From: a virus
Lineage: Duplodnaviria > Heunggongvirae > Uroviricota > Caudoviricetes
Virus record (IMG/VR): IMGVR_UViG_2671180296_000013
Coordinates: 1-25,079 of that record
Strand: one strand, 5' to 3'
DNA length: 25,079 nt
Each line of letters opens with the position of its first letter. Positions within the stretch are counted from its first letter, which is position 1. The position numbers were made by a program, and so were the translations under genes. The notes under the pieces were generated by a model. It did not search any database and had not been told where the DNA came from. It saw only the letters and a program-made list of their open reading frames with translations. This document shows positions 13,818 to 16,914 of the stretch, piece by piece.

Positions 13818-14279
13818 TCAAACAAAACCAGCCGTTTTCCGGCGTTCATACTCCTGTTTCAGCAACTCAATTGGCGTTGGTCCCGACGGGCGTTTTGGTG
13901 CCGCCAGCTGTCGCCGGACTGGCGGAATGCTCAGGCCGTTACCAACATGCTTTGCCCATTTCGTCAGTTGCCGTTCTGCAAGCCGTTTTAACTCCCCTTC
14001 GGTCATCTGGCGCTCAATCCCCTTTGAACGCATCTCGAGGCAAATGTGATACAGCACAGGCTGAGACCACGGGTATTTATCGCTTCCGTCGTATCGCCAG
14101 GACTCGTTGCGCCAGCGGCGGTACTCCTCCATCACAGCATCCACCGTCAGACCGAATGGATTGGCTCCGCTTTCCGAAATCAGCGCCACAAACTCAGCCA
14201 GGTCCGGAGGCCATGTTTCACCCGCCCGGCAGCGGTCCATGCACTGGCGGCAGACCTGCCGGATTTGCTGCTCAGTCAT
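13818..14279 (-). CDS. Replication protein P-like (helicase-loader family); start uncertain, longer forms from 14360 or 14483 would overlap the O-like gene
   Basis: ...TEQQIRQVCRQ...PPDLAEFVALI...DKYPWSQPVLYHICLEMRSKG... resembles the central and C-terminal parts of lambda P. The ATG at 14279 overlaps the O-like stop (GATGACTGA). Confidence 0.55.
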   Translation of the reverse strand: MTEQQIRQVCRQCMDRCRAGETWPPDLAEFVALISESGANPFGLTVDAVMEEYRRWRNESWRYDGSDKYPWSQPVLYHICLEMRSKGIERQMTEGELKRLAERQLTKWAKHVGNGLSIPPVRRQLAAPKRPSGPTPIELLKQEYERRKTAGFV

Positions 14280-15396
14280 CGCGCCAATCTGTGCAATCCA
14301 GAGCTTCGATGGTGCGGCCCCGTTCTTCCGGGTCCAGCGGTTCGAATAAACCTCCCCCATGAGTTCCCACAGCTTCCACGCCGTTTCCGTCGCTGATAAA
14401 TCCGTTTTCACGTTCCCACTGCTCACGTGCTGCCCGAATTTCCTGAACTGCCCGTGATGCGGTGCCACCTGGTGCTGCTGCATAGTTTGCCCCCTTGCTG
14501 ACTGGTTTAACCTGCGCCCTGACGTGATTTACGTGACGGGCGAATTTCTGCTCCCACTGAACCTGCGTGAAAACTTTCCCCTCCGCTGCCCAGTAGTCCC
14601 GGAAGGCGGCAAGTTCAGCAGGTGTAAATTCCGGCTCAGGAAGAGCCATCCCCCACAACGCAGCCCGTCGTCGAAAATCCCGTGACGGATACCAGCTATC
14701 GCTCATCGGGAATTTCCCGATGGGTTCGCTCAGGCCTTCCAGGTAATCAGGTTCCGCTGTCTGCAACGGCACGCCATTTGCCTCACTGGCCGGAGCACTC
14801 TCGCGCACGCGCGCGTTATGTGTGGGGTTTATATATCTGTTATCTGTTATCTGGATACCGCATGACAAAGCGTTAGCCTTATCCTTAGGCTTATCCTCAG
14901 GCAAAGGGATTGCCTTATCGAATGCCATCCCCAAAGCCTCAGAAACCCCGTAGGACGCGGCTCTCAGCGATTCCCTGGCCTCCCATTTGAGAGGGCAATC
15001 AGGAATTAAAGCGAATGCCTTTGCCCAAGATTTAATGACATTTATCGAGTTTGGCGGATTGTGTTTCGCAGCATTCGGGAGCCAAAAAACTCTGGCTTTG
15101 ATATCTGCTTTCACCATGCCAAGATTCATGGCTTCGCCTAAGGCTAAGTCAAAGGCTTCGATATCCCACCCCAACTCTTCAGCCATTGCTGCCCGCCCGG
15201 CTTTAAACAACCCAGGAATAATCCCGGTAAATGGACTGGTCAGCAGATAAATAAACAAACTCTGTCCACTTGGAGGCAGAGGAGATAACGCCCTAAATTT
15301 GGGATCATCCCATATCGTTATTTTTACCTTGCGATAAGGCTCATTGTTTGCCTTAGTTTTTGGCATGGGATTTGGCATGTTTTTAGCCTTAACCAT
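14272..15396 (-). CDS. Replication initiation protein (O-like functional position), contains iteron-like repeats
   Basis: Large ORF directly upstream of and coupled to the P-like gene; ATG at 15396 with GAGG SD (the track start at 15450 is a TTG); internal direct repeats at 14830-14920. Confidence 0.5.
   Translation of the reverse strand: MVKAKNMPNPMPKTKANNEPYRKVKITIWDDPKFRALSPLPPSGQSLFIYLLTSPFTGIIPGLFKAGRAAMAEELGWDIEAFDLALGEAMNLGMVKADIKARVFWLPNAAKHNPPNSINVIKSWAKAFALIPDCPLKWEARESLRAASYGVSEALGMAFDKAIPLPEDKPKDKANALSCGIQITDNRYINPTHNARVRESAPASEANGVPLQTAEPDYLEGLSEPIGKFPMSDSWYPSRDFRRRAALWGMALPEPEFTPAELAAFRDYWAAEGKVFTQVQWEQKFARHVNHVRAQVKPVSKGANYAAAPGGTASRAVQEIRAAREQWERENGFISDGNGVEAVGTHGGGLFEPLDPEERGRTIEALDCTDWRDD
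14830..14920. repeat. Iteron-like direct repeats (ATCTGTT x2-3; GCCTTATCC-type x3 with a DnaA-box-like TTATCCTCA) inside the O-like gene; candidate origin
   Basis: atctgttatctgttatctgg at 14835-14855; gccttatcc, ggcttatcc and gccttatcg at 14874-14918; an adjacent GC-rich then AT-rich stretch. Confidence 0.4.
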
Positions 15397-15475
15397 AATT
15401 GCCTCATCTGGTGTCGAACCTTCCTCCGGATATAATCTGTGATTCCCCAATCAACAGAACCAAAGGAGGTTCGAC

Positions 15476-15931
15476 ATGTCTTTAATGGCTGTTTGCCAAA
15501 AAATTAAAAATCACATGCGCACTGTGTACAAAATTAACCAGCACGACCACGACATGGTTAACCTGGTAACATGCAGGGCTATAGTTCTCACCCGCTTCCA
15601 CCTGATTCTTACAAATCACTCACGGGATTCTCTCCTGAGCCCCAGTAGCTATGATTCGCTGGCGAGATTGCTATACCAGGCAAGTGAAAAACGTATTACT
15701 GATCCCTTATCTGTTTCCCCTGTCCTTGCTCTTCACATTCTGGAAGACGCTCTCTATGCCCCCCATCAGGAATGCGACTATCAATTTCTTGAAGCTGAGA
15801 AATCAATGAGAGAATGGTTCGTTGAATATCGCGAACGGCAGCAAAAGTTATCCTCAGAGTATTCAGAACTTCCGCAACTTCGCTGGAGTGATCTTCCGAA
15901 CGAATTATTTGCTCTGACCCCAGAAAATTAA
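15476..15931 (+). CDS. Hypothetical protein (151 aa) on the opposite strand to the early-right operon
   Basis: ATG at 15476 preceded by AAGGAGG 6 nt upstream; overlaps minus ORF 15696..16109 by 236 nt, so both may not be real. Confidence 0.35.
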   Translation: MSLMAVCQKIKNHMRTVYKINQHDHDMVNLVTCRAIVLTRFHLILTNHSRDSLLSPSSYDSLARLLYQASEKRITDPLSVSPVLALHILEDALYAPHQECDYQFLEAEKSMREWFVEYRERQQKLSSEYSELPQLRWSDLPNELFALTPEN

Positions 15932-16109
15932 TTCTTGGGGATAAATCGTCCATAACTGAACGCAGGCTAAGTTCTGCGCTCTGAAGCTTCCGAACCGAAG
16001 TTTCTGTACCCCAACCCGCAATTTCTGCATTTTTTGCAAGTTTCAGGATCCAGTCTCGTAGTTCGCCGGGAGTAAGATTTCCAGCATTGATAAACGGTTT
16101 GATTTTCAT
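15696..16109 (-). CDS. Hypothetical protein (137 aa) downstream of ydaT in the early-right operon
   Basis: ATG at 16109, 20 nt after the ydaT stop and on the operon strand; conflicts with plus ORF 15476..15931. Confidence 0.35.
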   Translation of the reverse strand: MKIKPFINAGNLTPGELRDWILKLAKNAEIAGWGTETSVRKLQSAELSLRSVMDDLSPRINFLGSEQIIRSEDHSSEVAEVLNTLRITFAAVRDIQRTILSLISQLQEIDSRIPDGGHRERLPECEEQGQGKQIRDQ

Positions 16110-16128
16110 TGTTAGTTACCCTATTCAC

Positions 16129-16551
16129 TTAATGAACAACAACAGAATCGCCGGACGAACCGCCGCCGCTGAAATGTGCTTTCCGGTAAACGGCCTGGAC
16201 TGCATCATCATGCGCATCAATTGCCGTACTCAACGCTTCCTGCGCCGCCAGTAATGCACGGCGTTCCAGGGTATCGAAGATGCAGAGTCGGTGACGCAGC
16301 TCGCGCGGAAGAATTGCCAGAACCGCAGGGATCAGTTTCTGAATTTTTTCCCTTTGCGCTTTCGTTTCACCTTTCAACCAACGGTGATAGATATTCTGCT
16401 GATTGTTCCAGTCCTTGCCTGGTACCAGGGGCAATTCGCCGCCCCCTTGGCGCAGATATTCTTCAGTAATTGCATTGGCTACCCATGCCTGCCCTTTTTC
16501 AGCGGCCAGGGCTAACAGCACTGATTCAATGTGCTCATGCCTGATTTTCAT
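16129..16551 (-). CDS. ydaT: YdaT-like protein (Rac prophage YdaT family; CII-position)
   Basis: MKIRHEHIESVLLALAAEKGQAWVANAITEEYLRQGGGELPLVPGKDWNNQQNIYHRWLKGETK... closely matches Rac YdaT as I recall it; 140 aa. Confidence 0.8.
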   Translation of the reverse strand: MKIRHEHIESVLLALAAEKGQAWVANAITEEYLRQGGGELPLVPGKDWNNQQNIYHRWLKGETKAQREKIQKLIPAVLAILPRELRHRLCIFDTLERRALLAAQEALSTAIDAHDDAVQAVYRKAHFSGGGSSGDSVVVH

Positions 16552-16810
16552 GAATCAACTCCTGTGCATTTTGTGTGTTAGCTTTACATCCAACAGGTAA
16601 ACCATCGGTCGGATTCGGGTAGATATCAGGCCGAAGTTCATGAGGTGTAACCTCGAAATTCGTAGCCTCCGCGATACGCAATACCTTTTCGGGGCTTAAC
16701 TGACTACGGCCAGTAGCTACGAGGCTAATCATCGATTGCGAACAACCAGCGAGTACGGCCAAACAAGACTGTCGTACACGATTTTTTTTCAAATATTCAT
16801 CTAATGTCAT
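16535..16810 (-). CDS. ydaS: Cro-like HTH regulator (YdaS-like)
   Basis: MTLDEYLKKNRVRQSCLAVLAGCSQSMISLVATGRSQ is an HTH; ATG at 16810 with AAGGTGA SD; divergent from the repressor gene. Confidence 0.7.
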   Translation of the reverse strand: MTLDEYLKKNRVRQSCLAVLAGCSQSMISLVATGRSQLSPEKVLRIAEATNFEVTPHELRPDIYPNPTDGLPVGCKANTQNAQELIHENQA

Positions 16811-16914
16811 AAGGGTCACCTTAGTAATGCCTGTCAAAATATTAACTATATTAATTTAAATGATCAATACCTATATCAGTTTGAGTTTATGAGTTGTGTT
16901 CATAAGATGGTGGT
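16811..16914. promoter_or_regulatory. Divergent promoter/operator region between the cro-like and repressor genes
   Basis: AT-rich 104-bp intergenic region with palindrome-like TTAACTATATTAA and tgatcaa motifs. Position is by analogy to lambda OR; sites not mapped. Confidence 0.45.

Follow-up and report, generated by a model that had tools for sequence, protein, structure and literature searches.

Can two proteins be read from opposite strands of the same phage DNA, or is one of the two open reading frames (ORFs) merely open opposite a real gene? This question is raised by a stretch of 25,079 nucleotides (nt) from a virus of the Caudoviricetes (IMG/VR record IMGVR_UViG_2671180296_000013, positions 1 to 25,079; the whole stretch is called the window below), in which a 137 amino acid (aa) ORF on the minus strand of the early-right operon and a 151-aa ORF on the plus strand overlap tail to tail. 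The original prediction, made from this sequence, regarded the two ORFs as mutually exclusive and held that the sequence cannot settle which strand is coding. The latter is correct for the single sequence, but no longer holds once related loci are compared. From that comparison we consider it likely that both ORFs are genuine coding genes and that they form one inseparable mobile cassette of ~0.7 kb (15408-16109), which temperate enterobacterial phages carry in their early region and in which ~156 nt (15776-15931) would encode conserved parts of both proteins at once. The comparative evidence that both frames are coding is strong, and we regard the pair as a new, deeply conserved case of antiparallel dual coding in a temperate-phage early region. 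The two ORFs and the parts of their overlap are as follows.

15476-15931, plus strand: the plus ORF, 151 aa, ATG start.
16109-15696, minus strand: the minus ORF, 137 aa, ATG at 16109.
15776-15931, both strands: the dual-coding core, codons 101-151 and the stop codon of the plus ORF and codons 60-111 of the minus ORF.
15699-15775, minus strand: the C-terminal tail of the minus ORF, residues 112-137 (26 codons), open but not constrained as protein.

The layout described in the original prediction was confirmed from the sequence. The minus ORF continues the early operon 19 nt downstream of ydaT, and the stretch common to both ORFs is 15696-15931 (236 nt). The ATG of the antisense 151-aa ORF at 15476 is preceded by AAGGAGG at 15463-15469 and then 6 nt (TTCGAC), and we agree that an antisense gene with such a strong initiation region is unusual at this position.

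Protein searches with both translations, proposed earlier as one way to choose between the frames, gave unequal results. The 151-aa query found full-length homologs in Salmonella, Serratia and metagenomes down to 48% identity with zero gaps, whereas the 137-aa translation found relatives at ≥86% identity only, and the database searches alone suggested that the plus ORF was the real gene. This asymmetry arises because gene callers disallow such overlaps and keep one ORF. In the DNA of the distant plus homologs an ORF of 110-139 aa lies opposite, matching in position and phase, and these opposite ORFs are homologous to the 137-aa ORF, including the 59 N-terminal residues outside the overlap. A profile of the minus proteins then found homologs at 39-58% identity among annotated genes.

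A total of 87 loci were gathered from E. coli genomes, GenBank phages, IMG/VR, metagenomes and assembled read sets. The minus frame is open across the overlap at every locus carrying the plus gene, and the minus ORF is recognizably homologous over its full functional length in all plus lineages but one (L009); the profile matches start from profile position 1-3 in all lineages except this one, with E-values of 1e-12 to 1e-65. Both frames are intact in 14 representatives, whose plus proteins are 44-99% identical to that of the window. A remote clade (L047-L050, L061, L077-L084 and L086), with plus proteins ~25-38% identical to those of the first clade, has overlaps of 194-272 nt, again with both frames intact. 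The pair persists over a range of protein identities from 99% to about 25-30%, both in lambdoid prophages and in one P2-like enterobacterial prophage. Homologs that conserve one frame, with synonymous change breaking the other, had been named as the outcome that would decide for a single gene; the opposite was found, and since the homologs keep both frames open the two ORFs cannot be called mutually exclusive.

The position of the cassette is constant, after genes of the cro/cII/ydaT type and before the replication genes, and the minus gene is always co-directional with early transcription. The backbones that carry it have DnaT/P-type, IstB/DnaB-type or HTH_36-type replication modules, and the P2-like prophage has Cox and integrase genes. 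In several lineages the minus ORFs have a Shine-Dalgarno sequence of GGAGG or AAGGAGG. The species-representative genomes contained one locus only, in Trabulsiella, and the phage GenBank set one record only, while ~1 kb around the ORF pair was found in 22 of 5,426 complete E. coli genomes at 96.6-99.8% identity.

The relative phase of the two frames, obtained from the coordinates, is +1/-1, +2/-3 and +3/-2, so that every silent change in one gene falls on a second codon position of the other. Parsimony changes per site were counted on a tree of 14 lineages, with the following values at first, second and third codon positions.

Region of the plus ORF only, plus frame: 2.19, 1.38 and 2.84.
Region of the minus ORF only, minus frame: 2.42, 1.98 and 3.32.
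Overlap at nt 220-303 of the plus ORF, plus frame: 1.32, 1.18 and 3.46.
Overlap at nt 304-453 of the plus ORF, plus frame: 1.28, 1.22 and 1.38.

The excess of third over second position changes in the single-coded halves is significant for both ORFs (p=1.7e-9 for plus, p=4e-6 for minus). In the first part of the overlap the pattern is purely that of plus coding, and no sites vary more than the second positions of the minus frame; over the final ~150 nt, change is held down at all three codon positions. Third positions drop in the core from 3.0 to 1.38 changes per site in the plus frame (p=3.5e-10) and from 3.3 to 1.2 in the minus frame (p=2e-11), and the second positions of the minus frame show 2.85 changes per site in the tail versus 1.35 in the core (p=2e-6; Mann-Whitney tests for these three comparisons). 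Nei-Gojobori proportions of synonymous (pS) and nonsynonymous (pN) differences, computed among eight deep lineages, are given below as pS/pN.

Plus frame: single-coded half ~0.72-0.73/0.33, overlap tail 0.72/0.27, core 0.39/0.21.
Minus frame: single-coded half 0.72/0.43, overlap tail 0.36/0.41, core 0.30/0.22.

The non-overlapped residues 1-73 of the plus ORF have a pN/pS of 0.45 and residues 1-59 of the minus ORF one of 0.61, each the lowest of the six frames. A 30-nt sliding profile shows a sharp switch of constraint at ~15776. The synonymous sites of both frames are suppressed in 15776-15931 only; in 15699-15775 the plus frame alone is constrained and there is no double suppression. Synonymous-site conservation in each frame, another comparison that had been suggested for deciding on one strand, is in this way raised in both frames across the ~156 nt and normal where one frame codes, a pattern that indicates dual coding of this segment as far as alignments of related loci can tell.

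An openness test was performed in 10 lineages, in which the synonymous codons of one ORF were shuffled and the other frame was checked. The minus frame stayed open in 1.7-30% of the plus synonymous shuffles per lineage, and the plus frame in 0.1-35% of the minus synonymous shuffles (a fraction of 0.001-0.01 in most lineages). The openness of each frame is not explained by the sequence of the other protein, and the arrangement exceeds what chance would give.

The last 26 codons of the minus ORF are the only part that behaves as non-coding, with a minus frame pN/pS of 1.13. The ORF stops naturally after residue 110 in one lineage (L007) and earlier in another (L006). In the window its TAA stop (15696-15698) is made by the plus dipeptide Ile74-Thr75 (ATT-ACT, 15695-15700), which is conserved as Ile/Val-Thr, and many lineages have a 236-nt overlap without selection on the tail because the frame reads through to these Ile/Val-Thr codons. 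The tail is probably a disordered, unconstrained read-through passenger of the plus frame. The functional minus protein is probably residues 1 to ~111, modeled as a three-helix coiled coil. AlphaFold2 (AF2), run on an 18-sequence alignment, placed helices at 14-31, 35-64 and 72-112, with block-mean pLDDT of 81-94 over residues 41-110 and <50 for residues 116-137; the end of helix 3 coincides with the substitution switch, with the natural stop in L007 and with the point where the minus sequences cease aligning. The minus protein matches PHROG 37051 over positions 1-137 of 137 (E=5e-94), an unannotated family that is likewise matched by the distant homologs P0020 and P0033.

The plus family is a small one, with 23 clusters (50% identity) in a set of 1.84 billion representatives. 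Full-length members, of 148-162 aa (one of 185 aa), make up most of it, and the others are fragments of 43-105 aa. In all lineages the plus ORF is 150-157 aa long and essentially gapless within each clade, and its C-terminal motif L..L.W.DLP, which sits inside the dual-coded segment, is invariant. AF2 gave six helices for the plus protein with a mean pLDDT of 68.6, and the protein is predicted to be all-helical and soluble (grand average of hydropathy (GRAVY) -0.39, isoelectric point (pI) 5.95). The minus protein has a pI of 5.4, both proteins are acidic and soluble, and neither has a catalytic motif or a membrane segment. The plus protein has no PHROG or Pfam entry and no PADLOC match; the best match of the minus protein in PADLOC-DB, JetD, is not significant (E=0.025, 11.6 bits). 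For the function of either protein, Pfam, NCBIfam, PADLOC, PHROGs and comparisons with folds and solved structures returned only the unannotated PHROG 37051, and nothing further came from scanning both alignments against Pfam and the remote members against PHROGs. Two disrupted plus frames were seen. In E. coli ACLB1Q_06795 (P0004) a 14-residue frameshifted stretch lies inside the dual-coded core and the frame is restored downstream, and in L032 (680-1135) the plus start region is lost; these are either assembly errors or decaying copies.

The plus gene is preceded by a leader that is the most conserved part of the cassette, above either coding sequence. Its mean column identity is 77% across lineages with saturated synonymous sites, including the remote clade, and almost no variation is seen in its Shine-Dalgarno region (consensus AACCnAAGGAGGTTCGAC-ATG) among 17 distinct leaders, including those of pairs with ~25-30% identical proteins.

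15408-15475, plus strand: leader of the plus gene, with a candidate sigma-70 promoter and a long imperfect inverted repeat.
15408-15413, plus strand: candidate -35 element, CTGGTG in the window and TTGGTG elsewhere.
15431-15436 (TATAAT) or 15433-15438 (TAATCT), plus strand: candidate -10 element, 17-nt spacer.
15413-15424 and 15465-15475, in the leader: arms of the inverted repeat, GTCGAACCTTCC and GGAGGTTCGAC.

As read from the alignment, lineages with a 17-nt spacer have TATNCT, and those with a 19-nt spacer have a TGnTAnnnT extended -10, mostly TAGCCT. Such co-variation of spacer length with the TG of the extended -10 would be the pattern expected of a real sigma-70 promoter, and plus transcription would start near 15443-15450. 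Within the promoter spacer lies GYCGAACCTTCC, the complement of the Shine-Dalgarno region GGAGGTTCGAC, and the inverted repeat would sequester the plus Shine-Dalgarno and AUG. The leader hairpin folds stably as RNA of either strand (-29.1 and -32.7 kcal/mol, z about -4.8) and is more stable as minus strand RNA in 14 of the 17 lineages, with 20 versus 13 consensus pairs. Neither RNAalifold nor pair counting on both strands found compensatory changes in the leader or any excess over shuffles; in L009 and L048, changes that look compensatory do so only after register shifts and were left out of the count. As covariation is not significant, no specific conserved RNA structure or strand is claimed for the leader, and Rfam gave no match for the leader or cassette. 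The hairpin may insulate the plus ribosome-binding site from read-through transcripts or may be a processing or stability element of the early RNA, and the leader may also be a protein operator. A LexA box in the leader was considered by analogy with pO of lambda; only CTG-N15-CAG was seen, which is not a LexA box.

Two further elements in and near the leader were noted. The promoter scanner called a plus strand site at 15372-15399 (TTGGCA-16-CATAAT, 10/12), inside the 5' end of the replication gene and just upstream of the leader; it is conserved in the closest relatives only, and chance alone would give two sites of this kind in the stretch. The YdaT box has been described as TTGATT/ATGATT-N6-AATCAA (PMC9986795, PMC11879457). 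The sequence CTGATT-TTCATG-AATCAA, at 16541-16558 across the ydaT start codon, matches this box, which is at the same place in Rac. TGATT-CCCC-AATCAA at 15440-15454 in the leader has YdaT half-sites, but with a spacing of 4 and not 6. The leader element was found in the E. coli lineage only and is changed to AAGCAA in strain RM9088, and it could be a weak YdaT site or chance.

How might the two genes be expressed? The minus gene would be read with the early (pR-type) operon, after the cro/cII-like genes and before the replication genes, and the plus gene convergently from its own conserved leader and ribosome-binding site. We put forward, tentatively and from the arrangement of these signals, an alternating expression in which the plus gene would be on in the lysogen and the minus gene would be read from the early lytic operon. 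In the lysogen, with the early operon repressed, the plus gene would be transcribed from the sigma-70-like promoter of its leader. After induction or infection, early transcription would cross the minus gene and then the whole plus gene in antisense, and would silence the plus gene by transcriptional interference and RNA duplex formation, much as oop/pO acts against cII at the equivalent position of lambda (PMC5869508). Polymerase collision and RNA duplexes are known to silence the weaker unit in antisense transcription. The minus protein would be made whenever the early operon is on because no promoter of its own is visible and the gene lies 19 nt after ydaT; the plus protein would accumulate only with the early operon off, as in the lysogen, because its gene faces the operon and has its own initiation signals. 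Tail-to-tail dual coding means that recombination cannot separate the two genes, a property expected of partners that must stay together. The two proteins would probably have each other as target, perhaps as neutralizing partners, or share a host or phage target; they may also be functionally unrelated and simply be carried along by a regulatory antisense unit. Any particular biochemical role put on the pair would be doubtful.

Several observations weigh against two genes that are both under selection and never parted. In L009 (Trabulsiella guamensis, 1505-2504), the sole lineage seen with the plus gene and without a recognizable full minus gene, the plus gene is intact (150 aa), and the N-terminal part of the minus gene has been swapped for unrelated sequence in a 258-codon open frame, with helix-breaking changes in the core. 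Standalone paralogs of the minus protein (P0033, P0034) lie between ydaT and a complete pair (L047, 3001-3363; L046, 3001-3357), and these cases together mean that each gene can exist without an intact partner. Because a decayed copy of the plus C-terminus (…FPVLQRSALLSELSGLMSEN) lies on the strand opposite the standalone paralogs, they suggest a duplication of the whole pair followed by loss of the plus copy. In the one comparison that the paralog pair allows, their core has an own-frame pN/pS of 0.95; they cannot serve as a clean single-coding control because constraint in the core is relaxed. The substitution ratios rest on about 8-14 lineages that are not fully independent, and they are compressed by the saturated synonymous distances of the deep lineages. 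In principle, a constraint at the RNA level, and not the minus protein, could account for the wobble suppression of the plus frame in the core. The consensus promoter scanner did not call the leader promoter, which is a candidate read from the alignment. It nevertheless seems very improbable that the plus gene alone is real and the minus ORF an open antisense by-product joined to a short upstream peptide or untranslated spacer. The tail of the minus ORF does behave in this manner (pN/pS 1.13) with a stop dictated by the plus protein, the remote clade keeps the plus C-terminal motif better than the opposing minus sequence, L009 has lost the minus N-terminus and kept plus intact, and the probability of an open minus frame given the plus protein reaches 0.30 in one lineage. 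Against this, the first 59 codons of the minus ORF, which lie outside the overlap, are conserved as protein in all lineages but L009, with more third than second position changes (p=4e-6) and the lowest pN/pS of the six frames; plus wobble suppression occurs only where the predicted minus helices lie, and minus ORFs have Shine-Dalgarno sequences of their own. The converse, that the minus gene alone is real, with a spurious plus ORF and with 15397-15695 as an untranslated early-operon spacer, is the view of RefSeq and PGAP, which annotates only the 137-aa coding sequence (WP_000695003.1), and a PHROGs family exists for the minus protein only. This we find hardly credible, given a plus ORF of 150-157 aa that is near gapless within clades in all lineages, a pN/pS of 0.45 in its single-coded part with 1.38 second versus 2.84 third position changes per site, a probability of 0.001-0.01 in most lineages that the plus frame is open given the minus protein, and annotation of plus in Salmonella and Serratia by other pipelines.

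Two further explanations accept both proteins and differ on what the pair is for. A toxin/antidote-like or defence/counter-defence pair, with plus as a lysogen effector for exclusion or addiction, minus as its early neutralizer and an overlap that blocks their separation by recombination, would fit the co-occurrence and co-divergence of the two genes in every lineage but L009 and the moron-like character of the unit, which has a lower GC content and moves between unrelated prophage backbones. The convergent 3'-overlap layout also resembles that of Gram-positive prophage type I toxin-antitoxin loci, and strain F9792 has a different convergent pair in the same slot. We nonetheless judge such a pair unlikely: nothing matched in PADLOC, Pfam or NCBIfam or among toxin folds, the two proteins are acidic, soluble and helical and lack catalytic motifs and membrane segments, L009 keeps plus without an intact minus gene, which argues against a lethal toxin, and the standalone minus paralogs upstream of complete pairs caution against one as well. 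Quite improbable, in our estimate, is a plus unit that is translated like the minus ORF but mainly regulatory, an oop-like antisense brake on read-through into the replication genes with a leader hairpin acting on the early RNA. The position between a cII-like gene and the replication initiator, in antisense, is that of lambda pO-oop (PMC5869508), the leader is more conserved than either protein, and it folds more stably as minus strand RNA in 14 of 17 lineages (20 versus 13 consensus pairs). A pure RNA role would leave the protein-level constraint along all 151 plus codons unexplained, and the hairpin shows no significant covariation on either strand and no Rfam family. Going beyond alternating expression of two genuine genes, a new type of switch can be imagined in which exclusive expression is hard-wired by the tail-to-tail arrangement, with the plus protein made solely in the silent prophage and the minus protein solely once the early operon fires, and in which the 52 dual-coded codons form an interaction or antidote interface. 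This is speculative and rather unlikely; if true, no deeply conserved pair of sense and antisense proteins would have been known from temperate phages before, and the cassette would lend itself to testing whether selection on both products can maintain long antisense overlaps.

The lambda oop transcript runs leftward from pO, and 52 of its bases overlap the end of cII (PMC5869508). The plus unit is alike in that it occupies the same early-right slot in antisense, starts beside the replication initiator and overlaps the 3' end of the preceding early gene, and this oop-like position and orientation is found in all lambdoid contexts. The two differ in that oop is a short non-coding RNA, whereas the antisense unit here encodes a conserved 151-aa protein, with a 236-nt overlap of which ~156 nt is constrained in both frames, and there is no sequence similarity and no Rfam match. 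Rather than a short non-coding transcript with an intrinsic terminator, we found a 151-aa ORF under purifying selection, and a scan detected no terminator-like site on the plus strand downstream of 15931.

Other known systems share single traits with the cassette. In the type I toxin-antitoxin loci txpA/RatA, bsrG/SR4 and par of pAD1 the transcripts are convergent and overlap at their 3' ends; such loci are prophage-borne, have 3' overlaps of at least 100 nt and carry a structured leader around the toxin Shine-Dalgarno. Their toxins are hydrophobic and <60 aa and their antitoxin is a non-coding RNA, whereas here both products are soluble acidic proteins of 110-151 aa. The plus protein, with 151 aa, a GRAVY of -0.39 and a pI of 5.95, is not a small hydrophobic membrane-active toxin, nor is the minus protein with its pI of 5.4, and the opposing transcript carries a conserved coding gene in place of a non-coding antisense RNA antitoxin. 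Like prophage morons, the cassette is a small unit with its own ribosome-binding site, a candidate promoter and a lower GC content, inserted between conserved modules in unrelated backbones. A typical moron, however, is a single gene with its own terminator, oriented to avoid colliding with phage transcription; here two genes are interlocked, one of them in the phage early operon, and no terminator was detected. The "fold-back inhibition" of read-through transcripts in IS10 is comparable because the complement of the ribosome-binding site lies upstream of the predicted own start, so that only outside transcripts would sequester the Shine-Dalgarno and AUG (hairpin of -29 kcal/mol). It differs in that the arrangement here is a putative one, and in that the other strand forms a hairpin of the same or greater stability and covariation is absent.

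Antiparallel overlapping genes of E. coli (such as nog1/citC, laoB, ano and pop in EHEC) have reportedly been studied experimentally. As in the present pair, the two strands of one DNA segment each encode a protein, and standard annotation overlooks one of the two. Most of these cases are short ORFs of recent origin nested within a long conserved "mother" gene, and purifying selection on them is weak or absent; here two genes of similar size lie tail to tail, both non-overlapped halves are under purifying selection, and the arrangement is kept to ~25-30% identity. It is disputed whether long prokaryotic antiparallel overlaps encode two selected proteins, and one survey (bioRxiv 10.1101/724807) found that, as a rule, negative selection does not act on long antiparallel ORFs. 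The pair offers a clean comparative case, since the non-overlapped halves of both genes independently prove coding, the overlap is in the most restrictive phase, the zone of double constraint has sharp, structurally sensible borders, and the arrangement survives divergence to ~25-30% identity and transfer between unrelated prophages. Such a convergent overlap of two proteins is rare in bacteria, and annotations usually record one gene. RefSeq lists only the minus gene in E. coli, leaving 509 nt empty, the Salmonella and Serratia records list only the plus gene, and both genes are annotated in one phage record of GenBank. Because gene callers forbid the overlap, neither family appears in full, and the pair exposes a systematic annotation gap. 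It also places a protein-coding antisense unit with an unusually conserved leader where lambda has oop, immediately upstream of the replication genes, at a point where the control of lysis and lysogeny comes together with that of replication.

The cassette lies in a Rac-type prophage, which is at ttcA in close relatives. Its neighbors are the following genes.

16535-16837, minus strand: cro/YdaS-like helix-turn-helix gene of the early-right operon.
16129-16551, minus strand: ydaT, Pfam PF06254 YdaT_toxin, PHROG 163 "CII-like transcriptional activator", ydaT in RefSeq.
14272-15396, minus strand: replication initiator (DnaT-domain, O-like), PHROG 1408 replication initiation; the ORF is open from 15450.

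The order on the minus strand is cro/YdaS-like gene, ydaT, 137-aa ORF, a 300-nt gap, replication initiator and a lambda-P-like gene. The gap between the minus ORF and the initiator contains no minus strand gene; the plus ORF fills it and then overlaps the minus ORF. The GC content is 44-47% in the cassette versus 50-60% in the flanking ydaT and replication genes. A 53-aa GTG ORF at 15967-16128, which came in with the right edge of the region given in the original prediction (16128), had no support. The O-like gene had been placed at an internal ATG about 300 nt further on, and the first ATG with a Shine-Dalgarno sequence (GAGG) is indeed at 15396, 300 nt past the minus ORF stop. This is probably the start, giving 375 aa; PHROG 1408 aligns from residue 38 of the 392-aa ORF. 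The phage record has the 375-aa form and PGAP/RefSeq one of 304 aa, and the RefSeq start is probably too far downstream.

A near-identical prophage in E. coli F9792 (L003, 3177-3725) has a different convergent pair in the slot of the cassette, behind the same leader and ATG. Its 83-aa plus ORF abuts a 98-aa minus ORF with zero overlap, neither ORF has a family match, and the slot seems to exchange convergent two-gene units. Finally, the record "Actinobacillus phage vB_Apl-pPE4" (PP818812.1; L002) is 97% identical to the present E. coli Rac-type prophage over the 1-kb query and carries ydaT, kilR and recE-type genes; because of this identity and gene content its attribution to an Actinobacillus host looks doubtful.

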